Positions 2,472-62,985 of a stretch of 64,000 nucleotides of DNA are shown here, one piece after another (the first letter of the stretch is position 1; each line of letters begins with the position of its first letter). The notes beneath the pieces were generated by a model, which saw only the letters and a list, made by a program, of their open reading frames with translations, was not told where the DNA came from and searched no databases. A program made the position numbers and the translations under genes. This stretch comes from Dehalococcoidia bacterium (GTDB lineage Bacteria; Chloroflexota; Dehalococcoidia; Lucifugimonadales; UBA3495): the NCBI GenBank assembly GCA_963665735.1, contig OY762444.1, positions 3,787,547 through 3,851,546 on the forward strand. Reading direction: 5' to 3'.

Positions 2472-2507
2472 CCGTCGTTCCCGGCATACGCCGGAATCCA
2501 AGAATCC
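2472..2507 (-). repeat. A-type hairpin repeat; the only inverted copy seen
   Basis: Plus strand reads CCGTCGTTCCCGGCATACGCCGGAATCCAAGAATCC, matching the reverse complement of the A consensus including its GGATTTCTGG leader. Confidence 0.8.
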
Positions 2508-2624
2508 TTGTTTGGGCCGGGGGAACGTCGGCCCAGGCATTACCCCCAACCCCCAGGCCCTTTTGCCTTTTAATCGTTTCCCTGCACGTTTTTTACCCTG
2601 GCCCAAAATCTCCGGGCAAGGGGA

Positions 2625-2702
2625 CTCCTTCGGTTATGCTCAGGGCGGGGTTGGCAATGGCGAGGATTTTGGATTCTTCGCTTTGGTCAGAATGACATGG
2701 GG
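2625..2702 (+). repeat. A-prime composite repeat
   Basis: CTCCTTCGGTTATGCTCAGGGCGGGGTTGGCAATGGCGAGGATTTTGGATTCTTCGCTTTGGTCAGAATGACATGGGG. A near copy lies at 4142-4220. Confidence 0.85.
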
Positions 2703-2790
2703 ACTGCTCAGGATGATAAGGAAAGGCCAGGGATGAATGCTAAAAGACATTGCCCTTGCCAGCTTTATCGGGCAGGGCTATGATAGGGGC

Positions 2791-3315
2791 ATGGAACAAC
2801 GGCGGGTGAAATTGTCGCTGGGGCCGGTTTCCTCGGTGGACCCGGAGACTTTCGGGGAACCGGGCAGGCGCACTTTCCGGCTGGCTCTTAATGCCGGGGC
2901 GGCGCAGGCTTACGTCTGGCTGGAAAAGGAACAGCTTTTCCAGTTGGGGGTTTACCTGCGGGAGGCTATCCGCACGCTGTCCGACGAAGACCGGCAAAAG
3001 GAAGTCAGGCCCGGCGAGTCCCAATGGGCCGGCGGGGAAGAGACGGTTGAGTTCAAGGCTCGCCAGATGTTCCTGAACTACGACGTGGCGGGCAACTCTT
3101 TCTCCTTGTGGGCTTACGAAGATGAGGAAGGGACGGAGGATGCCCAGTCGGTCAGTTTCTGGGTGTCTCCGGAACAGGCGGAGACGCTTTCCAGGGAGGC
3201 GCTGCGTATCTGCGCCGCCGGCCGTCCGCCTTGCTTCCTTTGCGGCCAGCCCATAGACCCGCAAGGCCACGTCTGCCCCCGGGCCAACGGCCACGCCGTT
3301 TTTGAGAGCGGCTGA
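2791..3315 (+). CDS. DUF3090-family protein
   Basis: ORF 2737..3315. VDPETFGEPGRRTFRL...VWLEKEQL...CFLCGQPIDPQGHVCPRANGH is the pattern I associate with DUF3090 (TIGR03847-like). Internal ATG 2791 (MEQRRVKL) preferred as start. Confidence 0.7.
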   Translation: MEQRRVKLSLGPVSSVDPETFGEPGRRTFRLALNAGAAQAYVWLEKEQLFQLGVYLREAIRTLSDEDRQKEVRPGESQWAGGEETVEFKARQMFLNYDVAGNSFSLWAYEDEEGTEDAQSVSFWVSPEQAETLSREALRICAAGRPPCFLCGQPIDPQGHVCPRANGHAVFESG

Positions 3316-3341
3316 TTGCCGCCGCGGTTGAAGGGTTCAAG

Positions 3342-4043
3342 TTGAGCTTCGACCGTTCCACCTACGATTTTCTGACCCGGGGGGAGTTCCTGTCCTGTGA
3401 ACTGACCCCGGCGGGTTCCAACTACACGTTCTTATCCAAAATCCGCTACGGCGACCATACCGGGCTGGCTATCTACAAGCCTCGGGATGGGGAAGTTCCT
3501 TTGTGGGACTTTCCTTCCGGCACCCTTTACAAGCGGGAATACGCCGCCTACCTGCTGAGCGAAATTTTGGGGTGGGACTTCATTCCCTTGACGGTCATCC
3601 GCGATGGCCCTTATGGAATCGGCTCGGTCCAGCAATTCATTGAACACGACCCGCGGGAAAATTACTACACGCTGAACGAAGGCAACGCCGACGCCCTGCG
3701 GTGCATCGCCTGTTACGACCTGGTTGCCAACAACACCGACCGCAAGGCCGGCCACATCATCATGGACCACCAGGGCAAACTTTGGGGCATTGACCAGGGT
3801 TTGACTTTTCACGCCGATACCAAGATTCGCACCTGCATCTGGGACTTTTGCGGCGAACCCATCCCCCAGGAACACCTGTCCCGGCTGGCCGGGTTCGCCA
3901 ACGAATTGGCCGCGCCGGGGGAGCGGCTGCGGGAGCTGCTGGCCCTGTTGCGCCCGGAAGAAGTCACTTCGCTGCACCATCGGCTGGGGTGGGTGCTGCG
4001 GGAACGGGTTTACCCCGGTTCCCGGCCCCGGCGGCGGCGTTAG
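3342..4043 (+). CDS. SCO1664-family protein (PI3/PI4-kinase-like fold)
   Basis: TTG start. LAIYKPRDGEVPLWDFPSGTLYKREYAAYLLSE...NNTDRKAGHII..GIDQGLTFH resembles TIGR03843/SCO1664 proteins, which usually follow DUF3090. Confidence 0.7.
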   Translation: MSFDRSTYDFLTRGEFLSCELTPAGSNYTFLSKIRYGDHTGLAIYKPRDGEVPLWDFPSGTLYKREYAAYLLSEILGWDFIPLTVIRDGPYGIGSVQQFIEHDPRENYYTLNEGNADALRCIACYDLVANNTDRKAGHIIMDHQGKLWGIDQGLTFHADTKIRTCIWDFCGEPIPQEHLSRLAGFANELAAPGERLRELLALLRPEEVTSLHHRLGWVLRERVYPGSRPRRRR

Positions 4044-4064
4044 GTTGGTCTCAGGCGGGGATGT

Positions 4065-4091
4065 GGATTCCGGCCTTCGCGGGAATGACGG
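4065..4091 (+). repeat. A-type hairpin repeat
   Basis: GGATTCCGGCCTTCGCGGGAATGACGG. Confidence 0.9.
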
Positions 4092-4141
4092 GTTGGGGGC
4101 GGTAGCGGCACGCCGGTATGACGGTGCGGTTTTTGCCCCTA

Positions 4142-4220
4142 TTCCTTCGGCTACGCTTAGGACGGGGTTGGCTGCGGCAAGAATTTTGGATTCTTCGCTG
4201 CGCTCAGAATGACATGGGGG
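4142..4220 (+). repeat. A-prime composite repeat
   Basis: TTCCTTCGGCTACGCTTAGGACGGGGTTGGCTGCGGCAAGAATTTTGGATTCTTCGCTGCGCTCAGAATGACATGGGGG. Confidence 0.85.
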
Positions 4221-4262: not shown

Positions 4263-4288
4263 GGATTCCGGCCTTCGCCGGAATGACG
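4263..4288 (+). repeat. A-type hairpin repeat
   Basis: GGATTCCGGCCTTCGCCGGAATGACG. Confidence 0.9.
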
Positions 4289-4548: not shown

Positions 4549-6321
4549 GTGAAACCCGTTGTATTTCTTTTGGCAGGTCTGTTGACCCTTGGCCTTATCG
4601 TCGCTTGTGGTTCCGCCGCCGAACCCCAGATCGTCGAAGTCGAAAAGGTGGTGGAAAAAGAAGTCGTAGTTGAAAAGGAAGTCCAAGTTCCCGGGGAGGT
4701 GGTGGAGAAGATAGTCGAAAAAGAAGTCCAGGTGGAAGTCGAGAAGGAGGTCGAAAGGCTGGTAGTGGCCACGCCCACGCCGGTGCCGACGCCTTCGGCA
4801 GTTGAAGCCGGGCCTCGCGGGGAACTCATCGCCTCCGCCGACGACCTGGTGAACATGAGCACCGACAACCTGGGCCTGCTGTCGGTTCCCCAGTCCAGCA
4901 TCTACATGGAAGAGATGTTCGACTTCCTGATTGACCTGGATTTCGACAACAAACTGGTGCCGGGCCTGGCGGAAAGCTGGGAACTGTCCGATGACCAGTT
5001 GACCTGGACGTTCAAGATTCGGGACGGGGTACAGTTCCACGACGGCTCCGACGTGACTGCCGAAGACGTGGCTTACAGTTGGAACCGGACGTTCTTTGAC
5101 CCCAGGTCGGAGAACAGCACCGCTCTGGAATTGGCCAACCAAACCGAGTCCTTGACCGGGGTGGGGGACCAGTTCGTTATCAAGACCCACGAACCGCAGG
5201 CCAACGCCGGGATTTGGGGCAGTTTCCCCTTCCTGAGTTCCGGCTCGTTTACCTACTCCAAGGCCCAGATTGAGGCCGGGGAGGATGCTTTCCGGGAAGC
5301 GCCCATCGGCACCGGCCCCTACCAGTTTGACAGCCGGATTCCCAACCAGTTCATCACCATGACCTCCTCGGAAGTTGGTCACTGGCGGAAGGACCCGGGG
5401 TTCCAGACAGTGACCGTCCTGGAGATACCGGAACTGGCTACCCGCATTGCCCTGCTCAAGACCGGGGCCGCGGACATCATCGGCGCGTCCATTGCGGTGA
5501 AGGAGGACATCCTGGCGAATGGCCTCCAGGTTAAGACCGCTCCCGCTACTACGGTCAGCGTGGTCTGGTGCTGGTACCAGTGGTCGCCGGGCCACCCCTG
5601 TCATGACCCCAAGATTCGGGAGGCCATTGCCATATCCATTGACCGGCAGACCATCGCCGACCGGCTCTACTTCGGGGAAGCCTTCCCCATCGGCAACTTC
5701 GTGTCGGCTCGGGACACCTTCGGCTACGACCCGGACCTGGAGCCGCAGCCCTACGACCCGGAGCGGGCCAAGCAGTTGATGTCCGAATCCACCTTCCCGG
5801 ACGGGTTTGAAGTCCAGATTGAGACCTATCTTAATGACTCGGACTTCCCGGCTTTGCCCACTTTGGCCGAGGCGGTGCTGGGCTACCTGAACGAAATCGG
5901 CATCACCGGCGAAGTCAAGGTCTTTGACTGGACCAACCTTTCCGGCACACTCCGGTCCAGGGGTATGGACCCCACCCCCGAGGAGCGGCCCTACCCGCTG
6001 GTGATTCGGGGCAACGACTCCCGTTACTCCGGCCTGCGGTGGATGCGGGGCTGGTATCACTCCACCCGCAGCGTCCGGCCGGTGGTGGGGGATTCCACCC
6101 CTCACGTTGACGAACTCATCGAAAAGGCAGGCTCCGCGTTCGACGCGGACGAGCAGGAGGAATATATTCGGGAATTCAACCGGCTGCTGACCAACGAATT
6201 CCGCCACGCTCCCCTGATTTCCGCCAACGCGGTGTTTGGAATCTCCAACAAGGTGAAGGAATGGACTCCCATAAGCGGGCGTCCCTTCCCGCATAACTTC
6301 TGGTCGGCCCGGCCGCATTAA
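4549..6321 (+). CDS. ABC transporter substrate-binding lipoprotein, family 5 (peptide/nickel/opine type)
   Basis: ORF 4525..6321. GGAGGAGG at 4533-4540 favours GTG 4549. Lipobox LIVAC, (V/I)VEKEV repeat linker, then SBP_bac_5-like body (WTFKIRDGVQFHDGSDVTAEDV, GTGPYQF). Confidence 0.9.
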   Translation: MKPVVFLLAGLLTLGLIVACGSAAEPQIVEVEKVVEKEVVVEKEVQVPGEVVEKIVEKEVQVEVEKEVERLVVATPTPVPTPSAVEAGPRGELIASADDLVNMSTDNLGLLSVPQSSIYMEEMFDFLIDLDFDNKLVPGLAESWELSDDQLTWTFKIRDGVQFHDGSDVTAEDVAYSWNRTFFDPRSENSTALELANQTESLTGVGDQFVIKTHEPQANAGIWGSFPFLSSGSFTYSKAQIEAGEDAFREAPIGTGPYQFDSRIPNQFITMTSSEVGHWRKDPGFQTVTVLEIPELATRIALLKTGAADIIGASIAVKEDILANGLQVKTAPATTVSVVWCWYQWSPGHPCHDPKIREAIAISIDRQTIADRLYFGEAFPIGNFVSARDTFGYDPDLEPQPYDPERAKQLMSESTFPDGFEVQIETYLNDSDFPALPTLAEAVLGYLNEIGITGEVKVFDWTNLSGTLRSRGMDPTPEERPYPLVIRGNDSRYSGLRWMRGWYHSTRSVRPVVGDSTPHVDELIEKAGSAFDADEQEEYIREFNRLLTNEFRHAPLISANAVFGISNKVKEWTPISGRPFPHNFWSARPH

Positions 6322-10318: not shown

Positions 10319-10374
10319 GAAGGTGTGCTGAAAGTCCCTTCTTCGTTGCTTTCCCAACAGGATGCCAACCCCAA

Positions 10375-10397
10375 CCCTCCCCCTCGCAGGGGGAGGG
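10375..10397 (+). repeat. B-type hairpin repeat
   Basis: CCCTCCCCC tcgca GGGGGAGGG. Its left flank (10321-10374) is shared with the copy at 35083-35143. Confidence 0.9.
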
Positions 10398-14203: not shown

Positions 14204-14230
14204 GGATTCCGGCCTTCGCAGGAATGACGG
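14204..14230 (+). repeat. A-type hairpin repeat
   Basis: GGATTCCGGCCTTCGCAGGAATGACGG. Confidence 0.9.
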
Positions 14231-14273: not shown

Positions 14274-14431
14274 GACGATTGCAAAGTCCATGTCCCAACG
14301 ATGGGGAGGTGTCCAAGATGGGGATACATTTCCTTGACGTGGCAGTCACCCCCATCCTAACCTTCCCCCGTCAAGGGGGAAGGGACTATTGAACGCCTCC
14401 CAATACTGTTCCTACCGACTTTGCAATCGTC
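14274..14431. mobile_element. MITE-like element with perfect 15-bp terminal inverted repeats; carries a B-type hairpin
   Basis: GACGATTGCAAAGTC (14274-14288) and GACTTTGCAATCGTC (14417-14431) are exact reverse complements. GCCTAATCTC occurs just outside both ends (14261-14270 and 14434-14443). Confidence 0.5.
14361..14383 (+). repeat. B-type hairpin repeat (CCTTCCCCC/GGGGGAAGG variant)
   Basis: CCTTCCCCC gtcaa GGGGGAAGG. Both arms changed relative to consensus, keeping the pairing. Confidence 0.9.
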
Positions 14432-14913: not shown

Positions 14914-14965
14914 CAGCGTCATTCCGGGGAAAGCTGGAACGACGGTTATTCGACCCCCACCCTAA

Positions 14966-14988
14966 CCCTCCCCCTCGTAGGGGGAGGG
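14966..14988 (+). repeat. B-type hairpin repeat
   Basis: CCCTCCCCC tcgta GGGGGAGGG followed by GATTTAT. Lies downstream of a plus-strand gene. Confidence 0.9.
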
Positions 14989-15143: not shown

Positions 15144-15255
15144 GGGTTCCCGCTTTCGCGGGAATGACGGTAGAGGTCAGGAATGATTTTCACCCAGGGC
15201 GGGAATGATATTCACCCAGGGTGGGAATGACGAATTACGAAATTGACGACACCCC
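15144..15255 (+). repeat. composite A-type module (hairpin plus two GGGAATGA half-units plus conserved tail)
   Basis: GGGTTCCCGCTTTCGCGGGAATGACGG...GAATGATTTTCACCCAGGGCGGGAATGATATTCACCCAGGGTGGGAATGACGAATTACGAAATTGACGACACCCC. A near copy lies at 33558-33630. Confidence 0.85.
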
Positions 15256-17382: not shown

Positions 17383-17414
17383 TGCTTATAACAACCTTCT
17401 TTCTCACACAGAGG

Positions 17415-17429
17415 CACGGAGACTCAGAG
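17415..17429 (+). repeat. left inverted repeat flanking the GxxExxY cassette
   Basis: CACGGAGACTCAGAG, within a CACAGAG-rich stretch (17405-17440). Confidence 0.7.
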
Positions 17430-17451
17430 GGGCACAGAGATTTTTTGAGAT

Positions 17452-17847
17452 TCAGAGTTTGTCACCTTGCCGCGGCACATTTATGAGACGCTTGATGCCG
17501 TTTCTTAGCACGGGTACGTTGAAGTTCATCAACAAACCGAGGGGCCAGCCGCCCATTTTGATATAGGTAAGCAATTGAGCGGAGTGGACGGGTAGAAGTG
17601 TGTCGGTTGCTTTAAGTTCGACTACCACTTGGTCGGCTACCAGGAGGTCAACCCGAAACCCTGTGTTCAATTGTAATCCTTTGTAAGTGACAGGCAAGGG
17701 CAACTGCCGTTGGAAAGTCAGCCCGCGCAAGTTCAGTTCGTGGCAAAGACATTCCTCATAAGCGGACTCCAATAGACCCGGCCCCAACGCTCGATGAACT
17801 TCAATGCCGGCCCCGATGATGGATTCCGTTAGTTCGTTAAGCTCCAT
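17452..17847 (-). CDS. GxxExxY protein (PD-(D/E)XK nuclease superfamily)
   Basis: [29 protein letters not shown]...[15 protein letters not shown]...QLLTYIK is the GxxExxY family pattern. GC looks lower than in the neighbours. Confidence 0.85.
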
Positions 17848-17855
17848 ATCTCCCC

Positions 17856-18746
17856 CTATTCTTTCCCTGACTCCGCGCTCTCTGCGTCTCCGTGTTGAAA
17901 GCGCGTCAATGTCCCCAAGAAATCAGATTCCGAAGAGGGGTTTTCCGGGAGGGCCAGGGAAAAATACTCGAGCCGCATATATTCCCGGCTGAGGTCTTCG
18001 GGGAGTTGGGCGAAGGGGCCGTTGGGGTCCAGTTGGGTCTGGTGGCAGTTCAGGGAGGCGATTTTAACGTCCACGTAATCGGTCACGTCCACGGTGGCGG
18101 TCACTTCGTCGTCGGGCGTTCCCAGGGAGTCTATGTCCAGGCTGGCGAAGGGGGGCGTGATTCCCAAGTCCAGCATTTCCCGCCACATCCGCCGGAAGTT
18201 GCTGCGGGGAAAGCAGACGTAGTACAGGGACATGGACGTTGCGGCGGCGTCCTTGCTTTCCGCGTCGTTGACTTGTTGGAAAGCGGCGGTGACGTGGCGG
18301 CAGACGGCGATATGGTCGGGATGGCCGTAACCCCCGGACGGGTCATGGGTCAAAACCAGGTTGGGGCGGTTCTCCCGCATAATGTCCGCCAGCCGGGAAA
18401 CCACTGTCTCAGCGGGGGCTTGGTGCAAGGAATTGGGATGCTGGTTGTCGGCAGTGCCAGCCATACCGGAATCGCGATAGTCCAGGAAACGGAGGTCGTT
18501 AACCCCGGTGACTGCCATTGCCCGGCGCAGTTCCTCTTGCCGCACCTGGGGCAGCGTTTCCGGGGTTGCCAAGGCCGGGTCGCTGATTTCGCCCACGTCG
18601 CCGTTGGTGGCGCAGACCAGGGTTACCGCCGCGCCGCGGGCAACCAGCATGGCCAAGGTTCCGCCGCAGCCGAAACCTTCGTCGTCCGGGTGGGCGAAGA
18701 CGGCCAGGACGGAAAGGGCCTTTAGGTCGTTGCGGTTGGTGGGCAT
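17856..18746 (-). CDS. PIG-L (LmbE-like) family deacetylase
   Basis: [18 protein letters not shown] and [15 protein letters not shown] zinc-site motifs. The last residues ([12 protein letters not shown]) are encoded by the cassette inverted repeat. Confidence 0.85.
17880..17894 (-). repeat. right inverted repeat flanking the GxxExxY cassette
   Basis: Plus strand CTCTGCGTCTCCGTG is the reverse complement of CACGGAGACGCAGAG. 14/15 match to 17415-17429. Confidence 0.7.
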
Positions 18747-18805
18747 AAATTTACGCTGTGTGTAACGGTTGGGTTGATGGTTTGACCGGAAAACCCGTCA
18801 TACCG

Positions 18806-19005
18806 GCGCGGGCCGGGGTTCGGGGTTCCTTGCCCAATGGGTGTTGGTCTGTGCCGGGATTTCTGGATTCCGGCTTTCGCCGGAATGACGGTATATCCTG
18901 GCGCGGGCCGGGGTTCGGGATTCCTTGCCCCAATGGGTGTTGGTCTGAGCCGGGATTTCTGGATTCCGGCTTTCGCCGGAATGACGGTATATCCTGGCGT
19001 GGGCG
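18806..19005 (+). repeat. tandem duplication (95/96-bp unit, about 2.1 copies), each unit containing an A-type hairpin
   Basis: Units 18806-18900 and 18901-18996, plus a partial third. A-type cores at 18865-18891 and 18961-18987. Confidence 0.9.
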
Positions 19006-25475: not shown

Positions 25476-25580
25476 GCATAAACGTCCCTAACCCCTAGCG
25501 CATGGTGAAAAATCATTCCGGCGCAGGCCGGTATGCAGGACTCTGGCCGTTGAGTATGCTGTTTTGCGCTTGGCATTTCT

Positions 25581-25632
25581 GGATTCCGGCCCCGTATCGT
25601 GGTACGGGGCGGGCTTTTCGCCGGAATGACGG
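25581..25632 (+). repeat. A-type hairpin with an expanded loop (inner hairpin CCCCGTAtcgtgGTACGGGG)
   Basis: GGATTCCGGC[cccgtatcgtggtacggggcgggcttttc]GCCGGAATGACGG. Confidence 0.85.
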
Positions 25633-25710
25633 ATTGGGGGCAAAAACTCCCTCTCCCTATGGGGGTGAGGGTGGAAACCCCGGTAGTTTAGTCTCAAAGA
25701 GGGAATTTCG

Positions 25711-27399: not shown

Positions 27400-27443
27400 G
27401 TCCCTCGTCGTCCCTTCCCCAATGGACGTCACCCCCACCCTAG

Positions 27444-27466
27444 CCCTCCCCCTTCGAGGGGGAGGG
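27444..27466 (+). repeat. B-type hairpin repeat
   Basis: CCCTCCCCC ttcga GGGGGAGGG followed by GATTTCTT. Lies just downstream of a plus-strand gene. Confidence 0.9.
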
Positions 27467-27930
27467 GATTTCTTGCAGGCGCCTTGACTCATCCCAAAGG
27501 ATGTATCGTTATACTGGCGCAGGCCAGCATCCGGGATTCCTTGCCCGTTTGGACGTTGTTGCAGGCTTAGGATTTCTGGATTCCGGCTTTCGCCGGAATG
27601 ACGGTAGTTGCGGCGAGGGTAGGGGATTTTTTGCGGGGAGCTTTGGCCCATCAGAAAGGATGTATCGTCATGCCGGCGCGGGTTGGTATCCAGGATTCCT
27701 TGCCCGTTTGGACGTTGTTGCAGGCTTAGGATTTCTGGATTCCGGCTTTCGCCGGAATGACGGTAGTTGCGGCGAGGGTAAGGGATTTTTTGCGGGGAGC
27801 TTTGGGCCATCAGAAAGGATGTATCGTCATGCCGGCGCGGTCTGGTGTCCAGGATTCCTTGCCCGTTTGGACGTTGTTGCGGGCTTAGGATTTCTGGATT
27901 CCGGCTTTCGCCGGAATGACGGGTTGGAGA
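27460..27930 (+). repeat. tandem array, 159-bp unit, about 3 copies, each unit containing an A-type hairpin
   Basis: Unit starts (GGATGTATCG) at 27499, 27658 and 27817, an exact 159-bp period. A-type cores at 27578, 27737 and 27896. Confidence 0.9.
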
Positions 27931-27964
27931 CGCTGGAATGACGGTGGTTCGACCCCCACCCTAA

Positions 27965-27988
27965 CCCTCCCCCTAGACAGGGGGAGGG
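27965..27988 (+). repeat. B-type hairpin repeat
   Basis: CCCTCCCCC tagaca GGGGGAGGG followed by GATTTTGC. Confidence 0.9.
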
Positions 27989-30302: not shown

Positions 30303-30475
30303 GGCGTCGTTCCTAATGGTCATAGCCGCTTTATCGCTGCCGTCACGACAATTATAACGCACCGTTCTTCCAACCACGTCACCCGCAAATGCCCCCCGGC
30401 AACCGGAAAGCTACGCGCCCAAATGTGAATCCAACGCATCCGGTATATTTTTGATGGATTTTACCCCCAACCCAA

Positions 30476-30498
30476 CCCTCCCCCTGCCAGGGGGAGGG
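30476..30498 (+). repeat. B-type hairpin repeat
   Basis: CCCTCCCCC tgcca GGGGGAGGG followed by GGTTTTGC. Both flanking genes are on the minus strand. Confidence 0.9.
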
Positions 30499-30560
30499 GG
30501 TTTTGCTCTTTGGCGGGAATGATGGAGCAGATGCCAAGGTCGGCGCTAGCTAGGATTTCT

Positions 30561-30587
30561 GGATTCCGGCCTACGCCGGAATGACGG
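30561..30587 (+). repeat. A-type hairpin repeat
   Basis: GGATTCCGGCCTACGCCGGAATGACGG. Confidence 0.9.
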
Positions 30588-32140: not shown

Positions 32141-32271
32141 GACAACCCTCCTGCTTCCGATTCTTGCGGTCATTGACCGGCAAGAACTATAAGCGGAGGG
32201 TTCCGGGCTGCGCTACCGGCTGCTGACAGTAACCCGGCGCAATCGCATTTGGGGGTTTACCCCCATCCTAA

Positions 32272-32294
32272 CCCTCCCCCTGATAGGGGGAGGG
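32272..32294 (+). repeat. B-type hairpin repeat
   Basis: CCCTCCCCC tgata GGGGGAGGG. Both flanking genes are on the minus strand. Confidence 0.9.
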
Positions 32295-33557: not shown

Positions 33558-33630
33558 GGATTCCCGCTTTCGCGGGAATGATTTTTCACCCAGGGCGGGA
33601 ATGACGAATTATGAAATTGACGACACTCCC
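33558..33630 (+). repeat. composite A-type module (near copy of 15144-15255)
   Basis: GGATTCCCGCTTTCGCGGGAATGATTTTTCACCCAGGGCGGGAATGACGAATTATGAAATTGACGACACTCCC. Confidence 0.85.
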
Positions 33631-35082: not shown

Positions 35083-35143
35083 GAGGGTGTGTTGAAAATC
35101 CCTTCTTCTGGTCTTTCCCAACAGGATACCACCCCCTCCCTAA

Positions 35144-35166
35144 CCCTCCCCCTGGCAGGGGGAGGG
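35144..35166 (+). repeat. B-type hairpin repeat
   Basis: CCCTCCCCC tggca GGGGGAGGG. Its left flank is shared with the copy at 10321-10374. Confidence 0.9.
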
Positions 35167-35170
35167 GACT

Positions 35171-35198
35171 GGATACCGGCCTACGCCGGTATGACAGG
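35171..35198 (+). repeat. A-type hairpin, compensatory variant
   Basis: GGATACCGGCCTACGCCGGTATGACAGG. ATACCGGC/GCCGGTAT replaces ATTCCGGC/GCCGGAAT. Confidence 0.85.
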
Positions 35199-38901: not shown

Positions 38902-38930
38902 GTAGGGGCAGGTTTCAAACCTGCCCCTAC
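38902..38930 (+). repeat. C-type hairpin repeat (variant stem)
   Basis: GTAGGGGCAGGTTtcaAACCTGCCCCTAC. Confidence 0.85.
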
Positions 38931-38984: not shown

Positions 38985-39010
38985 GGATTCCGGCTTTCGC
39001 CGGAATGACG
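38985..39010 (+). repeat. A-type hairpin repeat
   Basis: GGATTCCGGCTTTCGCCGGAATGACG. Confidence 0.9.
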
Positions 39011-41774: not shown

Positions 41775-41944
41775 TGTTTGCTCCTGGAGAAGGTTTGGCT
41801 GTTAATGCTCAATACTACTACTCCCGGAAAGTTAGCACAAGGTTATATGGCGGCAAAGGGCGGGGAATGGGAAGTTGGGGCTGGCCCCCGGACTTGGGCG
41901 GGCGGAAGGCGTCGCGCCTACCGGGGGGCGCACCCCCTCCCCAA

Positions 41945-41968
41945 CCCTCCCCCTGAGTAGGGGGCGGG
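41945..41968 (+). repeat. B-type hairpin repeat
   Basis: CCCTCCCCC tgagta GGGGGCGGG followed by GGTTTTGAG. Confidence 0.85.
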
Positions 41969-42029
41969 GGTTTTGAGTTTCGCGGCGACGGTTTCGCCAA
42001 GGCGAAGGTCGGCTTTGGCTGGGATTTCT

Positions 42030-42056
42030 GGATTCCGGCTTTCGCCGGAATGACGG
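42030..42056 (+). repeat. A-type hairpin repeat
   Basis: GGATTCCGGCTTTCGCCGGAATGACGG. Confidence 0.9.
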
Positions 42057-42082
42057 GTTGGGGGCAAGGTTGTTATGAAGAT

Positions 42083-42102
42083 GGCAACCACAAGGGTTGC
42101 CC
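42083..42102 (+). repeat. C-type hairpin repeat
   Basis: GGCAACCacaagGGTTGCC(CC). Confidence 0.85.
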
Positions 42103-42249
42103 CTACATGGTGGCGTTCCTTCGTGAGCGGAGGGGGTTGGCTGGAAAAAGGTTGGTTGCGGGGGTGATGGCGCGGTTCAATTGGGGGCGGGCGCTGGTAT
42201 AATGGGGTTAGCTTGGCCCGGGTATGGGCCATTGGTTCCGAGGTATGGG

Positions 42250-42852: not shown

Positions 42853-42880
42853 TGGTTTGGGATTTTGACCCCCTCCCTAA

Positions 42881-42911
42881 CCCTCCCCCTACCAGGGGGA
42901 GGGAGTTTTTT
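42881..42911 (+). terminator. B-type hairpin plus T-run; candidate intrinsic terminator for the EVE gene
   Basis: CCCTCCCCC tacca GGGGGAGGG AG TTTTTT, 29 nt after the stop codon. The queG stop codon (minus strand) lies in the loop. Confidence 0.4.
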
Positions 42912-44184
42912 CTGGAGGGTTTTCAGTCCCGCGCTGGCCTTCGGTCTTGCGGGGATGTGGATTCCCGCTTTCGCGGGAATGACGGGTTGAATGGCTACGG
43001 GAAGGGGCTTTTTTGACGCCTGCTTTTACTTCTGCGGCGGCGGTTAGGGCGGCGCGGATTTCTTGTTGGACTTGGGGTTCTTGTTCGTGAGAGGCGGCTT
43101 GTTGGAGGGCGGCGGTGGCATCGGTTCCGCCGATTTGGCCCAAGGCCCAGGCGGCATGGCTTCTGACCAGGGGTTCGGCGTGTAACAGGGCTTCGCTCAG
43201 GGCGGGAATAGCTATGGGGTCTTGGCGGTTGCCGATGGCTACGCAGGCGTTGCGCTGCATTCCGACGCGCTTGGCCCGCATGATGGGGGTGCCGCGAAAC
43301 CTGTCCAGAAACCCGGCGTCGGAGAGTTGCAACAGGGTTATCAAGTCCACCGTTGCTAGTTCCTGACGGCCCAAGTCGGTGTTGGCAGTGGGCTTGGCTT
43401 TGCGGTTGACCGGGCAAACTTCCTGGCAAATGTCGCATCCGAAAACCCAGTCTCCCATCAGGGGGCGCAGTTCCGGGGGAATGGGGCCGCGGTTTTCGAT
43501 GGTCAGGTGGGAAATGCAGCGGGAGTTGTCAATGACGTAGGGGGCGACGATGGCGCCGGTGGGACAGGCGGGGATGCAGCGGGCGCAGTTGCCGCAGGTC
43601 TTGTTCAGGGGCGGGTCGGGAGGAATCGCCAGGTTGGTGATGACCTGGCCGAGGAATACCCAGGAACCGAGTTGGGGGGTGAGGATGTTGGAGTTCTTGC
43701 CGAACCAGCCGAGGCCGGCGCGGTTGGCGGCGGCGCGGTCGAGCATGGGGCCGTCGTCCACGTACCAGCGGGCGGCGATTTCCTGACCCGTATATCCGTC
43801 CGTGGCGGCGCAGTTTTCCCGCAGGACGGCGACGTACTTTTTCATGCGGGACTTGATTAGTCGGTGGTAGTCACGGCCCCGGGCGTAGCGGGCGATTTTC
43901 CCAGTGGGTTCGTCCCCGGCGGGGGGCGGGTCTTCTCCGGGGTAGTAGTTGAGGCCGAGGCAGATGACGGAACGGGCGCCGGGCAGCAATTCCTGGGGTT
44001 GGCTGCCCCGGATGACTCGCTGTGGGGTGTACCAGGGAAGGCCGTCCATTTGGCCGGACTGGATGCGCTCCAAGGCGGCCTGGCGGTCGGCGGTAAATTC
44101 CTGGGCGGTGGTTACGCGCACCAGGTCGAACCCCATTTCCAAGGCCAGGGACTTGACGGTTTCTTTCAGGTCGGGGTGTGGCAT
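42889..44184 (-). CDS. queG: epoxyqueuosine reductase
   Basis: GWFGKNSNILTP, two 4Fe-4S Cys clusters (CGNCARCIPACPTGA, CDICQEVCP) and a HEAT-like C-terminus. The last roughly 45 codons run through A- and B-type repeats. Confidence 0.9.
   Translation of the reverse strand: MPHPDLKETVKSLALEMGFDLVRVTTAQEFTADRQAALERIQSGQMDGLPWYTPQRVIRGSQPQELLPGARSVICLGLNYYPGEDPPPAGDEPTGKIARYARGRDYHRLIKSRMKKYVAVLRENCAATDGYTGQEIAARWYVDDGPMLDRAAANRAGLGWFGKNSNILTPQLGSWVFLGQVITNLAIPPDPPLNKTCGNCARCIPACPTGAIVAPYVIDNSRCISHLTIENRGPIPPELRPLMGDWVFGCDICQEVCPVNRKAKPTANTDLGRQELATVDLITLLQLSDAGFLDRFRGTPIMRAKRVGMQRNACVAIGNRQDPIAIPALSEALLHAEPLVRSHAAWALGQIGGTDATAALQQAASHEQEPQVQQEIRAALTAAAEVKAGVKKAPSRSHSTRHSRESGNPHPRKTEGQRGTENPPEKTPSPW
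42959..42985 (+). repeat. A-type hairpin (CCCGC/GCGGG stem variant), inside the queG 3' end
   Basis: GGATTCCCGCTTTCGCGGGAATGACGG. Confidence 0.9.
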
Positions 44185-44311: not shown

Positions 44312-44362
44312 GGATTCCGGCTCCTTCGGCTATGCTCAGGACAGGTTTCGCCGGAATGACGG
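44312..44362 (+). repeat. A-type hairpin with a 24-nt loop insertion
   Basis: GGATTCCGGC[tccttcggctatgctcaggacaggtttc]GCCGGAATGACGG. Confidence 0.85.
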
Positions 44363-44425: not shown

Positions 44426-44965
44426 TTAGAGGTTTTCTCCCTGGTAGCGGCCTTGGTAGCCGGGGCCGGTGGGGTCGTCCAGCCGGAAGAACACCAGTTG
44501 CACTAGCCGGGCGCCTTTCTGCACCCGGAATCCGTGGTGGTTGTGGACTACCAGGAGGGCTTGGGAACGCCCGGAGTAGCCGGCGTCCCAGACGCCGGTG
44601 GGGACGCTGACGCCGCTGCGGAGCAGGCTGGTGCGGGATTGGCCGAGGGCGGCCAGTCCCGGGGGCAGGGATACGATTTCGGAGAAGGTGATGGAGTAGT
44701 GGCCGGGGGGAAGGTCGGCCCAACCATCGGGGTCGAAAGGGATGGGGGATAGTTGGGAGACGGTACGGTCTGACGGGTCGGCGCCGAGTATGCCGGGGGT
44801 TTCCAGGCGGCTGATTTGTTGCAGGGTCAAGTCAAAGCCGTTGGGCTGCAACTGGTCTTTCAGGGAAAGGAAGTCGCGCACCAGGGGCGGGTCGGCGGCG
44901 ATGAGTTGGGCGATGGAGTTTTGGCTCAGCACGGGCGGCGGGCCTTTCGATGGGTGGTTCACCAT
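44426..44965 (-). CDS. dCTP deaminase/dUTPase-fold protein, probable dUTP diphosphatase
   Basis: ORF 44426..45100 trimmed to ATG 44965, because the upstream part is repeat-derived. LQPNGFDLTL, GQSRTSLLRSG and VWDAGYSG motifs of the trimeric dUTPase fold. Confidence 0.65.
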   Translation of the reverse strand: MVNHPSKGPPPVLSQNSIAQLIAADPPLVRDFLSLKDQLQPNGFDLTLQQISRLETPGILGADPSDRTVSQLSPIPFDPDGWADLPPGHYSITFSEIVSLPPGLAALGQSRTSLLRSGVSVPTGVWDAGYSGRSQALLVVHNHHGFRVQKGARLVQLVFFRLDDPTGPGYQGRYQGENL

Positions 44966-45009
44966 CAATGTGTCCACCGGGGCCGATGTCGGTATTGGCA
45001 AGGATTTCT

Positions 45010-45062
45010 GGATTCCGGCCCGTTCGGCGATGCTCAGGGCAGGCTCTACGCCGGAATGACGG
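45010..45062 (+). repeat. A-type hairpin with a loop insertion (same subfamily as 44312)
   Basis: GGATTCCGGC[ccgttcggcgatgctcagggcaggctctac]GCCGGAATGACGG. Shares the upstream GTCGGTATYGGCAAGGATTTCT with 44290-44311. Confidence 0.85.
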
Positions 45063-45142
45063 GTTGGGGTATGCCGGAATGGTTTTTTTGCCAGGCGCAA
45101 GGGGGATGGAATTTTGAGAAAGGGTTTTTACCCCCACCCCAA

Positions 45143-45165
45143 CCCTCCCCCTACCAGGGGGAGGG
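45143..45165 (+). repeat. B-type hairpin repeat
   Basis: CCCTCCCCC tacca GGGGGAGGG. Confidence 0.9.
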
Positions 45166-47513: not shown

Positions 47514-48056
47514 ATGCTTTTGTCTGACCGTGAAATCAGGCTTGCCCTGGAAAGCGGTGACTTGGTTATTGACCCGCCGCCCCCGGTGGAAAGCGACATG
47601 ATTCAACCCGCGTCAATTGACCTTCATCTCCACCCCATTGTACGGACATACAAAGAAGACGTGAACCGGGACGCTACGACCCTCGATATAGGCTTGTTGG
47701 ATGTAGAGGCTTACCTTGCAGCCAATACGGACGAACATGACATTTCCCAAAGGGCTTTGGGCCTGCGACCGGGTGACTTCGTAATCGGGCAGACTCTTGA
47801 GAGAGTGCGCTTGAGCAACATTCTTGCCGGGCGCGTTGAAGGGAGGAGCCGATTGGCCCGGATGGGCATAGGGGTGCATTTGACTGCGCCTAAAATTGAC
47901 CCCGGTTTCGATAACCGAATCACCCTGGAAATTTTTCACGTAGGAAAACGGCGGGTGGAAATCCCGAACGGCATGGCGATTTGCACTCTGCTTTTGGAGC
48001 GGTTGGGATTCCCGGCCAGTCATTCGTACTCGGGAGTATTCCAGGGAGAGACCTGA
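47514..48056 (+). CDS. dcd: dCTP deaminase
   Basis: AAGGAGGGG RBS. MLLSDREI..., QPASIDLHL, GRSRLARMG and ITLEIFH match the Dcd motifs, including the catalytic Ser/Arg/Glu positions as I recall them. Confidence 0.85.
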   Translation: MLLSDREIRLALESGDLVIDPPPPVESDMIQPASIDLHLHPIVRTYKEDVNRDATTLDIGLLDVEAYLAANTDEHDISQRALGLRPGDFVIGQTLERVRLSNILAGRVEGRSRLARMGIGVHLTAPKIDPGFDNRITLEIFHVGKRRVEIPNGMAICTLLLERLGFPASHSYSGVFQGET

Positions 48057-48080: not shown

Positions 48081-48107
48081 GGATTCCGGCTTTCGCCGGA
48101 ATCGCGG
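48081..48107 (+). repeat. A-type hairpin repeat
   Basis: GGATTCCGGCTTTCGCCGGAATCGCGG. Confidence 0.9.
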
Positions 48108-49665: not shown

Positions 49666-49760
49666 GGATTCCCTCGAAAGCAGGAATGACGGTAGGGGGC
49701 GGAGATTTCTCGATTCCGGCTCCTTCGGCTATGCTCAGGACAGGTTTCGCGGGAATGACG
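49666..49760 (+). repeat. two A-type units (one with a reversed loop, one with a loop insertion)
   Basis: GGATTCCCTCGAAAGCAGGAATGACGG, then CGATTCCGGC[tccttcggctatgctcaggacaggtttc]GCGGGAATGACG. Confidence 0.85.
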
Positions 49761-51372: not shown

Positions 51373-51378
51373 GGATGT

Positions 51379-51505
51379 GGATTCCCGCTTTCGCGGGAAT
51401 GACGGTAGTTGTAACGGGGAAGGGTCTGGATTCCCGTTTTTGCGGGAATGACGGTAGTTGTGTAACGGGGAATGGTCTGGATTCCGGATTTCGCCGGAAT
51501 GACGG
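51379..51505 (+). repeat. three tandem A-type units (about 50-bp period)
   Basis: Cores at 51379-51405, 51428-51454 and 51479-51505, with stems CCCGC/GCGGG, CCCGT/GCGGG and CCGGA/GCCGG. Confidence 0.9.
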
Positions 51506-52611: not shown

Positions 52612-52638
52612 GTATTCCGGCCTGCGCCGGAATAACGG
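52612..52638 (+). repeat. A-type hairpin repeat (extended stem variant)
   Basis: GTATTCCGGCCTGCGCCGGAATAACGG. Confidence 0.85.
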
Positions 52639-54602: not shown

Positions 54603-54682
54603 TGGGGGCCTCCGGGTGTTGAGGGGTTAGAGTACGTTGGATGAGGAACTGGTTGAAGGCGAGGGCTTCACCCCCATCCTAA

Positions 54683-54705
54683 CCTTCCCCCGTCAAGGGG
54701 GAAGG
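54683..54705 (+). repeat. B-type hairpin repeat (CCTTCCCCC/GGGGGAAGG variant)
   Basis: Same double-compensated variant as at 14361. Confidence 0.9.
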
Positions 54706-54710
54706 GACTA

Positions 54711-54736
54711 GATTCCGACTTTCGCCGGAATGACGG
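54711..54736 (+). repeat. A-type hairpin repeat
   Basis: GATTCCGACTTTCGCCGGAATGACGG. Confidence 0.85.
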
Positions 54737-54751: not shown

Positions 54752-54772
54752 GGGCAACCACAAGGGTTGCCC
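54752..54772 (+). repeat. C-type hairpin repeat
   Basis: GGGCAACCacaagGGTTGCCC. Confidence 0.85.
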
Positions 54773-54795
54773 CTACGGTGGCTTCGCGGCATGGC

Positions 54796-60444: not shown

Positions 60445-60449
60445 TTTCA

Positions 60450-61331
60450 GTGGCGATGGGCCATTACCAGCCAACGGAAAATTGGGCGGACGTGGGCGAA
60501 TTGCGGGTCAGGTTCCTGGACTGGGGCGGCGACGGGCCGCCGGTCCTGGCCCTGCACGGGTTGGCGTCGTCGGCCCATTGGTATGACCTGGTGGCGCGCA
60601 TCCTGCGGAGGGACTTCCGCATCGTGGCGCCTGACCAACGAGGACACGGACAGACCACGCAAGCGACTTCGGGATATGACTGGCAATCGCTGTCGGAGGA
60701 CGCCGCCGGTCTGCTGGACTACGTGGATATTCCCAGAGCGACGGTGTTGGGCCATTCCTGGGGCTGCAACGTGGCGATTAACCTGGCGGCCCGGTTCCCG
60801 GACCGGGTTGGGGCGCTAGTCTTGATTGACGGCGGCACGGGCAGAAACCAGGAATGGGAGGTTGGCGGCTGGGAGGCCTTTCGAGCCAGGGCCAGGCCAA
60901 GGGACGTTTCCGGCGCCAGGGAGGAATTTGTCGGGCGGCTGAAACGCCAGTTGTGGTTTTGCTGGAATCGGGAGATTGAGCGCATCGTGCAGACGATGGT
61001 GTATGAGGATGCGGATGGGCAGATGCAGGATATTCTGCGGCCCGAAAACCACGCGCAGGTTATGAAGGCAATGTACGAAGAACCGACTTCCAGCGTTTGG
61101 GCGCAGATTCATTGCCCGACGCTGCTGGTTCCGGCCGGGCCAAGGCCGGAGCAGGCGGGAACGGAGCGGGCCAGGATGAAAGTGGAGCGGGTGGAGGCGG
61201 CGGTTGCGGGAATCAAGGACTGCCGGGCGCGGTGGATTCCTGAAACCGTCCACGATATTGGCTACGACAAGCCGCAGGAATTGGCCCACGTAATACGGGA
61301 GTTTTTGTCGCAAGTGGGGCAATCGCCGTAG
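60450..61331 (+). CDS. alpha/beta hydrolase
   Basis: LALHGLASSAHWY, DQRGHGQT and GHSWG nucleophile elbow. Confidence 0.85.
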   Translation: MAMGHYQPTENWADVGELRVRFLDWGGDGPPVLALHGLASSAHWYDLVARILRRDFRIVAPDQRGHGQTTQATSGYDWQSLSEDAAGLLDYVDIPRATVLGHSWGCNVAINLAARFPDRVGALVLIDGGTGRNQEWEVGGWEAFRARARPRDVSGAREEFVGRLKRQLWFCWNREIERIVQTMVYEDADGQMQDILRPENHAQVMKAMYEEPTSSVWAQIHCPTLLVPAGPRPEQAGTERARMKVERVEAAVAGIKDCRARWIPETVHDIGYDKPQELAHVIREFLSQVGQSP

Positions 61332-61349
61332 GGTTTACCCCCTCCCCGG

Positions 61350-61372
61350 CCCTCCCCCTAACAGGGGGAGGG
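61350..61372 (+). repeat. B-type hairpin repeat
   Basis: CCCTCCCCC taaca GGGGGAGGG, 19 nt after the stop of the plus-strand hydrolase gene. Confidence 0.9.
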
Positions 61373-61443
61373 GGTTAATTCCGAACCCCCAAAGGTTGTT
61401 GTTTCGGGGAGACATTGATTCTTGGGGAGACAGGAGAAAGACA

Positions 61444-62910
61444 GTGACCGGCGCCGTTAGAGTCAGGTACGCCCCCAGCCCCACGGGTTTTCCGCACATT
61501 GGCAACATCCGCACGGCCCTTTTCAACTGGCTGTTCGCTCGCCGGAACGATGGGCAGTTCGTGGTGCGGGTAGAGGACACGGACCAGCAACGGCTGGTGC
61601 CGGGGGCGGTGGACGCCATCCTGGACGGACTGGAATGGCTGGGGATTGACTGGGACGAAGGCCCGCGGGTGGGCGGCCCATACGGGCCTTACTTGCAGTC
61701 GGAGCGGCTGGAGCTTTACCGGCAAGCGGCGGAAAAGTTGATTGCCCAGGGGGCAGCGTACCGCTGCTACTGCGACCGGGAACGGTTGGCCCAAGTGCGG
61801 AAGCAGCAGGAAGCGGAAAAACGGTCTATCGGGTACGACCGGCATTGCCGCAACCTGAGCGATGGGGAACGGCGGGAATTGGAGGCGGCCGGCTTGCCGT
61901 CGGTGGTGCGTTTCGCCATGCCAACGTCGGGGATTACCGAGGTGGACGACATCATCCGGGGTCACGTGGAGTGGCAGAACGACTTGGTGGACGATTTCAT
62001 ACTGCTGAAGTCGGACGGGTTTCCGACGTACCACTTGGCGGTGGTGGTGGATGACCACCTGATGGAGATAAGCCACGTTCTGCGGGCGGAAGAGTGGTTG
62101 TCCAGCACGCCGCGGCACTTGCAGCTTTACCGGGCGTTGGACTACCCGCCGGTGCAGTTCGGCCACCTGCCGATGATCCTGGGGCCGGACCGGGCCAAGT
62201 TGTCCAAGCGGCACGGGGCGACTTCGATACTGGAATACAAGGACGCCGGCTATCTGCCGGAGGCGCTGGAAAACTTCATGGCGCTGTTGGGATGGTCGCT
62301 GGACGACCATAGCGACGTGATGTCGCTGGAGGTGGTGAAGGAAAATTTCACCCTGGAACGGGTGGGCAAGCCGGCGGCCATTTTCGACATTGGGCGGCTG
62401 GACTGGATGAACGGGGTCTATATCCGGCAAATGGACGCGGAAACGCTGGCGGCGGCGATGCTGCCCTTCCTGGAAAGGGACTTGCCGGCGGAGTTGCTGC
62501 CGGTGGATTTTGATTACCTGGCGCGGATTGCGCCCTTGGTGCGGGAGCGGTTGAAGACGCTGGCGGAGGCGGCGGACATGACGGGCTACTTCTTTGCCGA
62601 GGAATTGGACTACGGCGGGGCCAACCTGGTGCAGCGGGGCATGGATGGCGCCGGGGCGGTTGATGCTCTGACCAAGGCGGGGGAGACGTTGGGCCGGGCG
62701 GAGTCTTTTGTATCGGCAGACCTGGAGCAAACTTTGCGGGCTTTGGGGGGGGAACTGGGACTGCGGCCCCGGGAATTTTTCGGGACGCTGCGGGAGGCAT
62801 TGACGGCCCGTTCCGCCACGCCTTCGCTGTTCGACGTTATGGAAGTCTTGGGGCGGGAGCGGGTTTTGGCGCGGATTGGGGCGGCGGTTGATTTCTTGAA
62901 GACCCAATGA
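61444..62910 (+). CDS. gltX: glutamate--tRNA ligase
   Basis: ORF 61396..62910. AGGAGAAAG RBS favours GTG 61444. RYAPSPTGFPHIGN (HIGH) and KLSKRHG (KMSKS). Confidence 0.9.
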   Translation: MTGAVRVRYAPSPTGFPHIGNIRTALFNWLFARRNDGQFVVRVEDTDQQRLVPGAVDAILDGLEWLGIDWDEGPRVGGPYGPYLQSERLELYRQAAEKLIAQGAAYRCYCDRERLAQVRKQQEAEKRSIGYDRHCRNLSDGERRELEAAGLPSVVRFAMPTSGITEVDDIIRGHVEWQNDLVDDFILLKSDGFPTYHLAVVVDDHLMEISHVLRAEEWLSSTPRHLQLYRALDYPPVQFGHLPMILGPDRAKLSKRHGATSILEYKDAGYLPEALENFMALLGWSLDDHSDVMSLEVVKENFTLERVGKPAAIFDIGRLDWMNGVYIRQMDAETLAAAMLPFLERDLPAELLPVDFDYLARIAPLVRERLKTLAEAADMTGYFFAEELDYGGANLVQRGMDGAGAVDALTKAGETLGRAESFVSADLEQTLRALGGELGLRPREFFGTLREALTARSATPSLFDVMEVLGRERVLARIGAAVDFLKTQ

Positions 62911-62952
62911 TGGGTTGGCGTTCCGCTGGGCGGGGTTTGACTCTCTCCCTGA

Positions 62953-62985
62953 CCCTCCCCCTTGCTAGGGGGAGGGGATTTTTTT
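62953..62985 (+). terminator. B-type hairpin plus T7 run; candidate intrinsic terminator for gltX
   Basis: CCCTCCCCC ttgcta GGGGGAGGG GA TTTTTTT, 43 nt after the stop codon. Confidence 0.45.

Follow-up and report, generated by a model that had tools for sequence, protein, structure and literature searches.

Intergenic hairpin repeats of known classes in a Dehalococcoidia chromosome segment appear to be oriented by replication rather than by transcription

Why should hairpin repeats that crowd the spacers of a bacterial chromosome point almost uniformly in one direction, regardless of the strand on which the neighbouring genes lie? The question is raised by a stretch of 64,000 nucleotides from a Dehalococcoidia bacterium (assembly GCA_963665735.1, contig OY762444.1, positions 3,787,547 to 3,851,546), referred to here in its full length as the window, in which three families of hairpin repeats, A, B and C, had been described from the sequence alone. 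The original prediction held that their orientation ignores genes and reflects a replication-linked process at the DNA level, and it named HUH-type enzymes and a polar chromosome-organizing signal as candidates. Our follow-up makes it rather probable that three known hairpin classes have recently multiplied in the intergenic DNA, where they form mosaics, and that A and B are oriented here by replication and not by transcription.

The repeats do lie where they had been placed, and A and B are far more frequent than chance predicts. The A core, ATTCCGGC-N4-GCCGGAAT, has 22 matches in the window at up to 2 mismatches (0.03 expected), and the B core occupies 15 sites (0.37 expected). The C family is present, with two oriented copies and a symmetric relative at 38902-38930, but its two matches alone are not above chance. 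A count of about 28 A copies had been made by eye, and our census comes near that figure, with 22 canonical copies, four with a long loop insert, two D-type relatives and seven reversed, degenerate copies (Table 1). The claim that nearly every spacer longer than about 100 bp is occupied was right in tendency but somewhat overstated, as 21 of the 29 spacers of at least 100 bp bear a repeat.

To what class does A belong? On the plus strand it has the asymmetric layout ggatttctGG-stem-TTTC-stem-GACGG, followed by TAG/GTTGG. Its minus strand reads CCGTC-ATTCCGGC-GAAA-GCCGGAAT-CCAG, which equals the published NTS, CGTCATTCCCGCGMAVGCGGGAATCYRG, but for a compensatory change in one stem pair. The NTS (Neisseria Transformation Sequence) takes in the older dRS3 repeat, and its degenerate form is called SRM (PMC11893778). 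It is bound by SsnA, a GIY-YIG protein of 94 amino acids that cuts a few bases 5' of the NTS, in single-stranded DNA (ssDNA) only and on the CGTC...CCAG strand only; the reverse NTS strand is not cut and RNA is not bound (PMC11893778). The GTC that precedes the stem is important for cleavage, the C that follows it for binding (PMC11893778), and the A copies retain both. The published SRM pattern has 16 matches on the window's minus strand and none on the plus strand, with about 0.4 expected, and the NTS itself has 2 matches at up to 1 mismatch and 14 versus 0 at up to 2 mismatches. A also has the features of the CGTC-1 class of repetitive extragenic palindromic (REP) sequences, namely a CGTC tag, an 8-bp stem beginning with AT, a 4-nt loop and a CCA tail, and as ssDNA its hairpin has a computed folding energy of -8.8 to -9.0 kcal/mol (z = -3.9 to -4.5). 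Only four canonical copies (33558, 42959, 51379 and 51428) match the strict dRS3 pattern, ATTCCC-N8-GGGAAT; most copies have ATTCCG..CGGAAT. The GTAG tag is absent from both A and B and is limited to two or three C copies. Judged by its sequence, A corresponds to the NTS/SRM hairpin (the CGTC-1 REP and the Neisseria dRS3) in reverse complement.

The 28-nt A pattern is widespread, with more than 119 loci among the matches listed (one genome per species) in many phyla, including Gamma-, Beta-, Alpha- and Deltaproteobacteria, many Dehalococcoidia, Terriglobia, Nitrospirae, Brocadiia and others. Proteobacterial copies usually form intact inverted pairs, and in one gammaproteobacterial locus (L056, in our numbering of the matching loci) a GIY-YIG gene (PF01541, E = 8.5e-14) has A copies on its flanks. 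A 33-nt extended pattern recovered seven short contigs of 34-65% GC in a metagenome scan, of no use for a replichore test, and the extended motif is thus not lineage-specific. In two metagenome contigs (L122 and L126, 34% and 43% GC) the extended A, including its GGATTTCTGG flank, is unchanged, and conservation therefore reaches past the published 28-nt NTS across very different genomes. Reiterated 3' half-sites often come after A hairpins (15180-15230, 27913-27945 and 30510-30525), the half-site GGAATGAY occurring 29 times forward and 3 times reverse in the window. Some of the half-sites make up short tandem arrays, and reiterated half-sites likewise occur in other loci (L081, L105 and L127). 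A short module, GAAATTGACGACACYCC, follows A at 15239-15255 and 33613-33629, in one case directly upstream of an imuB-like gene, and two other Dehalococcoidia loci (L040 and L083) have a similar tttgacgacactccctag after A. The module includes a TTGACG hexamer and might hold an outward promoter.

The B family has a different architecture. Its plus strand reads ACCCCCAyCCTAA-hairpin-GAttt. On the minus strand every copy consists of a pyrimidine block (CCCTCCCCC), a loop, a purine block (GGGGGAGGG), TTA and a third block (GGGTGGGGG), and the third block is predicted to pair antiparallel with the purine block through G.G:C and T.A:T triplets. All 9 triplets are allowed in 9 of the 13 copies scored, and 8 of 9 in a further two. 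A stem variant, GGGGGAAGG, is accompanied by a matching third block, GGATGGGGG, stem and third block thus covarying, and the plus strand has no third block. We had also considered B as a G-quadruplex, and replaced that assignment by the triplex layout, which fits better. On these grounds of sequence B is identified as the intrastrand-triplex motif known as BoxC, PIT or 'TM' (class II, type A; TMECO type A), with the minus strand as the triplex-forming one. This motif, characterized in E. coli, was found in over 260 genomes; DNA polymerase is blocked in vitro by PIT elements, and the motif has also been tied to genomic instability (PMC4666352). A generic form of the BoxC motif has matches in 5414 of 5426 E. 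coli genomes, with a per-genome median of 17 places. The end of C, CCCCTAC, gives GTAG on the opposite strand and thereby places C in the GTAG-tagged REP class; two oriented copies allow no statistics. All three families are thus of known kinds.

We then turned to orientation. The bias had been read from which arm comes first on the plus strand, a tautology, as palindromic stems read alike on both strands. Since the stems are perfect inverted repeats, we scored orientation from the loop and the asymmetric flanks, and the one-way bias was still there. Allowing up to 3 mismatches, we count 22 forward A copies and 1 reverse copy (binomial p = 6e-6), or 16:1 when spacers are counted once (p = 3e-4), and B is oriented 14:0 (p = 1e-4). 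The most strand-skewed 8-mers of the window also come from A (TGGATTCC, 28:2, and GAATGACG, 26:1). The single exception reported earlier, at 2472-2507, did not hold up, for there are seven reversed A-like copies, all of them degenerate. They carry 3-5 mismatches to the A core, compared with 0-2 in the 22 forward copies (Mann-Whitney p = 1e-4), and four of the seven are the left halves of inverted doublets with an intact A as the right half. These are the only four A doublets in the window, each with a degenerate partner, and the remaining A copies are singletons. A doublet folds as one long hairpin (-26 kcal/mol, z = -5.7), and doublets are reiterated as tandem arrays with units of 159 bp and 96 bp. 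The 159-bp array encodes a spurious peptide, which in a search had only two weak matches. The orientation is identical in spacers between tandem plus-strand genes, tandem minus-strand genes, convergent genes and divergent genes, and the B copies cited earlier do have the gene contexts ascribed to them, so that the claim of independence from transcription stands.

If orientation does not follow genes, then the question is what it follows. GC skew is positive over the entire window; it is about twofold higher, with the same sign, at 36000-64000 (0.15-0.23) than at 1-36000 (0.03-0.10). Read on the plus strand, the GC skew at third codon positions (GC3 skew) is +0.13 in plus-strand genes and +0.38 in minus-strand genes, and T exceeds A as well. 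The plus strand is G-rich at third positions for genes of both strands, and the asymmetry therefore belongs to the strand as a whole, which is what a leading strand should show. A dnaN gene lies at 22515-23654 and encodes all three beta-clamp domains; it has no dnaA alongside, the sign of the GC skew does not change there, and this site is not the origin.

Comparison with related genomes, which had been proposed as a check, agreed with the replication-linked reading in part. The closest relatives found are metagenome-assembled genomes of Dehalococcoidia/Chloroflexota. One sister, L132, whose ABC ATPase has 93% amino-acid identity, runs collinear with positions 2.7-20.5 kb of the window, its genes pointing the same way. 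Its GC3 skew has the opposite sign, at -0.21/-0.07 compared with +0.03/+0.25 for the same genes of the window, and its sole canonical A is flipped, the paired opposite copy being broken by a loop insert. A second sister, L144 (91% identity), is syntenic with 32.3-41.8 kb. There the coding-strand GC3 skew of five of five orthologues reverses or shifts strongly (for example DnaE2, +0.12 versus -0.34), and the A upstream of the gene for the alpha subunit of 2-oxoacid:acceptor oxidoreductase (OFOR) is flipped relative to the gene, again lying on the G-rich strand; one intact copy in L144 did not flip. The L144 spacer at 5470-6232 (763 nt) is a large head-to-head arrangement, with a C-rich left half that holds NTS-forward copies and a G-rich right half that holds reverse copies, and it contains the intact copy that breaks the polarity.

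A pooled test covered 33 Chloroflexota-type loci besides the window, with repeats masked and the strand scored by local skew. A lay on the G-rich strand in 46:18 copies and 19:5 loci (p = 0.007), and in 13:1 copies and 7:0 loci where the absolute skew was at least 0.08. The corresponding figures for loci of other phyla were 94:90 copies and 31:27 loci. For B-like elements, seven loci were concordant with skew and one was discordant. We rejected the G-richness of the motif itself as a source of the association: masking of 80 or 300 nt about each copy left the result unchanged, GC3 agreed, and the other phyla had no association. This indirect evidence supports the view that the polarity is real, acts at the level of DNA, follows skew and not genes, is linked to replication and is specific to this lineage. 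The replication-linked interpretation of the original prediction thus gains ground, if indirectly. We did not find replication polarity reported in the papers that we read on these repeats. What appears to be new is the strict replication-strand polarity in a Chloroflexota lineage, with both strand-specific hazards on the leading-strand template.

The expansion of A is recent, because relatives at 85-90% amino-acid identity have no A in syntenic regions of 21 kb, sisters at 91-94% identity have one or two copies, and the window has about one per 3 kb. Some positions are shared: the spacer after the second ABC ATPase gene has a B in both the window and a sister (L128), and downstream of the OFOR-beta gene the corresponding spacer of another sister (L143) also holds an A. 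The 96-bp doublet array at 18805-19004 lies between PIG-L and hydantoinase-A genes that are 7 nt apart in L132; it is therefore inside a probable operon and should be transcribed.

One possible explanation for the shared polarity of A and B is that one strand of each is harmful when single-stranded. The G-rich plus strand would be the leading-strand sequence, and the parental plus strand would then be the lagging-strand template, which is single-stranded at the fork. That template would carry the harmless strands, namely the reverse NTS, left uncut by SsnA, and the complement of B, which is rich in pyrimidines. The Ssn-recognized strand of A and the triplex-forming strand of B would both lie on the C-rich strand, the leading-strand template. 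Copies that placed the hazardous strand on the lagging-strand template would be lost or would decay, which would explain why the reversed partners of the A doublets are all degenerate. We infer that such loss or decay is the simplest common cause of the polarity. A broader statement, that this lineage keeps hazard-bearing repeats (NTS and BoxC) only where the hazardous strand lies on the leading-strand template, is tentative, and we think it somewhat more likely to fail than to hold.

Several observations weigh against this explanation or against the link with replication itself. The direction of replication was deduced from skew only, in the window as in the sisters and the pooled loci. There are discordant A loci (L012, L098, L102 and L103), in addition to the intact discordant A at 5600 of L144. 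Intact inverted A doublets are common in other phyla, and the cleavable strand on the lagging template is therefore not strongly toxic in general. The strand specificity of Ssn is known from Neisseria and a few homologues, that is, from lineages other than this one (PMC11893778). Neither the window nor any Chloroflexota locus examined has a GIY-YIG or ssnA-type gene. Selection and biased insertion predict the same polarity and are inseparable here. For E. coli, we took oriC to lie at about 3.925 Mb and dif at about 1.59 Mb. With these positions, the 13 unpaired BoxC elements among the 13 plus-strand and 10 minus-strand entries in Table 1 of PMC4666352 split 8:5, with no replichore bias.

One could envision other scenarios. 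In strand-biased insertion, ssDNA of the NTS strand, perhaps released by Ssn, would be incorporated like Okazaki fragments into the nascent lagging strand, and from the outset new copies would carry the NTS on the C-rich strand. This scenario predicts the observed polarity and would suit a burst as recent as the absence of A from the 85-90% relatives implies, and the reiterated half-sites and tandem arrays point to replication-associated copying. We nevertheless regard it as rather unlikely: the selective degeneracy of the reversed doublet partners is left unexplained, and B, which by its sequence is no Ssn substrate, shares the polarity. Moreover, no transposition intermediate could be defined, nor could insertion junctions or a target duplication be read from empty and filled sites of L132 and the window, whose spacers are too diverged. 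In another scenario, one of the two candidates of the original prediction, an HUH Y1 transposase of the RAYT (REP-associated tyrosine transposase) or IS200/IS605 type moves the hairpins as ssDNA on the lagging-strand template. IS608 and ISDra2 do show a replication-coupled orientation bias (PMC6006769), and C has the GTAG tag typical of RAYT-linked REPs. However, the tag of A is CGTC, a survey that did not then know the class from Chloroflexi found no CGTC repeats beside RAYT genes (PMC3733652), and the protein associated with A is of the GIY-YIG family; B is a triplex motif and not a REP; no Y1_Tnp domain was matched among the window proteins scanned, and the Chloroflexota loci examined have no Y1 transposase gene either; and a mechanism of the IS608 type puts the recognized strand on the lagging-strand template, the opposite of what A shows. 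An HUH enzyme is therefore very improbable here. The idea of an enzyme that recognizes an ssDNA hairpin on one strand was right in spirit for A, with Ssn in mind, but wrong as to the class.

The notion that the repeats are a polar chromosome-organizing signal, selected to point from origin to terminus for a KOPS/FtsK-like translocase or for SMC loading, would account for a uniform polarity irrespective of genes and for the A-derived 8-mers being the most strand-skewed words of the window. Yet the same A motifs are unpolarized in other phyla, as is BoxC in E. coli, close relatives without the repeats show that these cannot be an essential organizing code, and GGGNAGGG within B occurs on both strands, since the stem is palindromic. 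We give this notion a slightly smaller chance again than the HUH enzyme. A role at the RNA level, as terminators, mRNA stabilizers or small RNAs, seems to us the least probable of all. Most copies do lie 3' of genes, and B with its T-run scores as terminator-like on the plus strand. The T-run is on that strand only, though, and the 4 of 14 B copies that lie between minus-strand genes give those transcripts none; terminator-like sites are not enriched (18 in the window, 24.5 expected), Rfam and tRNA scans of the window gave no matches, earlier work saw neither terminator nor promoter activity of BoxC/PIT (PMC4666352), and SsnA does not bind RNA (PMC11893778).

Should loss of the hazardous orientation indeed be the cause, then Ssn-type ssDNA nucleases and triplex folding would act on ssDNA at the fork in vivo and would shape genome architecture, and the A and B repeats would be replichore markers. 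The polarity would predict that the A and B repeats are 'seen' as ssDNA at the fork and which of their strands does harm, and it would predict a switch of orientation at origin and terminus. A direct and testable handle is offered by the near-absolute polarity of both elements, which reverses along with the skew in one or two syntenic sister blocks and does not occur in other phyla. The sole demonstrated role of Ssn, to our knowledge, is to limit transformation in Neisseria, and we know of no accepted function for BoxC triplex motifs in 30 years. The Ssn nuclease family was first described in 2025 (PMC11893778). REP-like hairpins are by default assumed to imply RAYT, an assumption that the finding also corrects.

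Table 1. Repeat features of the window (coordinates of the 64,000-nt stretch)
Feature	Position	Strand	Remark
A copy	4065..4089	+	plus strand reads GGATTCC..GAATGAC; NTS/SRM strand is minus
A copy	4263..4287	+	0 mismatches
A copy	14204..14228	+	divergent spacer
A copy	15144..15168	+	followed by reiterated 3' half-sites, 15180-15230
A copy	18865..18889	+	right half of inverted doublet, 96-bp array
A copy	18961..18985	+	second unit, 96-bp array
A copy	27578..27602	+	unit 1, 159-bp array
A copy	27737..27761	+	unit 2, 159-bp array
A copy	27896..27920	+	unit 3, 159-bp array
A copy	30561..30585	+	between minus-strand genes, downstream of B 30476
A copy	33558..33582	+	ATTCCCGC (dRS3-type) stem
A copy	35171..35195	+	ATACCGGC stem variant, compensatory change; abuts B 35144
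A copy	38985..39009	+	A in matching spacer of sister L143
A copy	42030..42054	+	B-A-C composite
A copy	42959..42983	+	dRS3-type stem; overlaps 3' end of open reading frame 42889-44184
A copy	48081..48105	+	mutated GAC flank (CGC)
A copy	49666..49690	+	GAAA loop, imperfect stem
A copy	51379..51403	+	unit 1, 51-bp array
A copy	51428..51452	+	unit 2, 51-bp array
A copy	51479..51503	+	unit 3, 51-bp array
A copy	52612..52636	+	2 flank mismatches
A copy	54710..54734	+	B-A-C composite
A variant	25581..25630	+	nested hairpin inserted in loop
A variant	44312..44360	+	long loop insert (tccttcggctatgctcaggacagg)
A variant	45010..45060	+	long loop insert
A variant	49712..49759	+	long loop insert
D-type relative of A (GGATTCTTCGCT..TCAGAATGAC)	2671..2696	+	same polarity
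D-type relative of A	4188..4213	+	same polarity
Reversed degenerate A	2477..2500	-	single exception of the original prediction
Reversed degenerate A	14918..14941	-	4 mismatches, 6-bp stem
Reversed degenerate A	18797..18820	-	left half of doublet with 18865
Reversed A	25512..25536	-	lacks GTC flank and C after stem
Reversed degenerate A	27508..27531	-	left half, doublet 1
Reversed degenerate A	27667..27690	-	left half, doublet 2; one long hairpin with 27737
Reversed degenerate A	27826..27849	-	left half, doublet 3
B	10362..10397	-	weak third block (6/9); B-like copy at same site in sister L128
B	14348..14384	-	stem variant, covarying third block, 9/9 triplets
B	14953..14988	-	9/9 triplets
B	27431..27466	-	9/9 triplets
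B	27952..27988	-	9/9 triplets
B	30463..30498	-	8/9 triplets
B	32259..32294	-	8/9 triplets
B	35131..35166	-	9/9 triplets
B	41932..41970	-	imperfect right arm
B	42868..42903	-	9/9 triplets
B	45130..45165	-	9/9 triplets; 17 nt downstream of groEL
B	54670..54706	-	stem variant, covarying third block, 9/9 triplets
B	61337..61372	-	9/9 triplets
B	62940..62976	-	7/9 triplets
B-like hairpin (CCCTCTCCC/GGGTGAGGG)	25649..25671	.	lacks flank block
C, GTAG-tagged REP (by sequence)	42082..42106	-	minus strand reads GTAGGGGCAACCC..; B-A-C composite
C, GTAG-tagged REP (by sequence)	54752..54776	-	B-A-C composite
C-like symmetric hairpin	38902..38930	.	GTAG..CTAC at both ends
159-bp x 2.9 tandem array	27459..27922	+	doublet units, NIME/BIME-like mosaic
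96-bp x 2.1 array	18805..19004	+	flanking genes 7 nt apart in L132
51-bp x 2.5 array	51378..51505	+	A units
22-bp x 2.3 array	15180..15230	+	A 3' half-sites

The window itself is a segment of bacterial chromosome with 62% GC, and its genes are of housekeeping and catabolic kinds, including groEL, glnS, gltX, dnaN, dnaE2/imuB, yifB and those for the 2-oxoacid:acceptor oxidoreductase, a hydantoinase/caprolactamase and peptide ABC transporters. The groEL gene has no adjacent groES and lies between two dCTP-deaminase-like paralogues on opposite strands (44426-45100 and 47514-48056). The called start of the first of these overlaps the long-loop A copy at 45010-45060, and its true start probably lies further downstream. 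A gene of the PDDEXK_3 nuclease family (17452-17847, minus strand) is bracketed by inverted CACGGAGACnCAGAG-like motifs (about 17405-17445 and 17870-17897), all within 17383-17900. The syntenic sister L132 lacks this gene and has 14 nt between the genes on either side; it may be a small mobile cassette. A gene of the Uma2 family (putative restriction endonuclease, 1436-2452) contains an in-frame tandem repeat of 42 bp x 1.9 at 2273-2353.

How do these repeats compare with known systems? A resembles the NTS/SRM-SsnA system (PMC11893778) in that it matches the 28-nt NTS but for one stem pair, has the SRM matches already described, and is intergenic, multi-copy and clustered. It differs in its Chloroflexota host, as homologues were placed mainly in Pseudomonadati, in the absence of an ssnA gene from the window and the Chloroflexota loci examined, and in that the window copies are mostly singletons with strict replication-strand polarity, a feature of which that paper makes no mention. 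With CGTC-1, dRS3 and the NIMEs (PMC3733652), A shares tag, stem, loop and tail, as well as tandem mosaics with segments of 50-160 bp bracketed by hairpins; the CGTC-1 survey, however, found mostly head-to-head dimers and named five phyla, Chloroflexi not among them, whereas the dimers of the window have one decayed partner. B has the three-block layout of BoxC/PIT/TM (PMC4666352), that is, pyrimidine block, purine block, TTA and a reverse-Hoogsteen third block, mostly with 9/9 triplets, and is likewise intergenic. Its stem is CCCTCCCCC and not CCCTCTCCC/CCCTCGCCCC, it is regularly followed by A, and its 14:0 orientation contrasts with the lack of strand bias of BoxC in E. coli. Like the REP/BIME/REPIN-RAYT systems, the window has high-copy intergenic hairpins, doublets that fold into long hairpins, mosaic arrays and GTAG on C; unlike them, it has no GTAG on A or B and no RAYT, and the partner family of A is GIY-YIG and not HUH. 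Finally, IS200/IS605 elements such as IS608 and ISDra2 also rely on a strand-specific ssDNA hairpin and have an orientation that follows the direction of the fork, but the recognized strand of A would lie on the leading-strand template, and the window has neither their transposase genes nor elements with defined ends.

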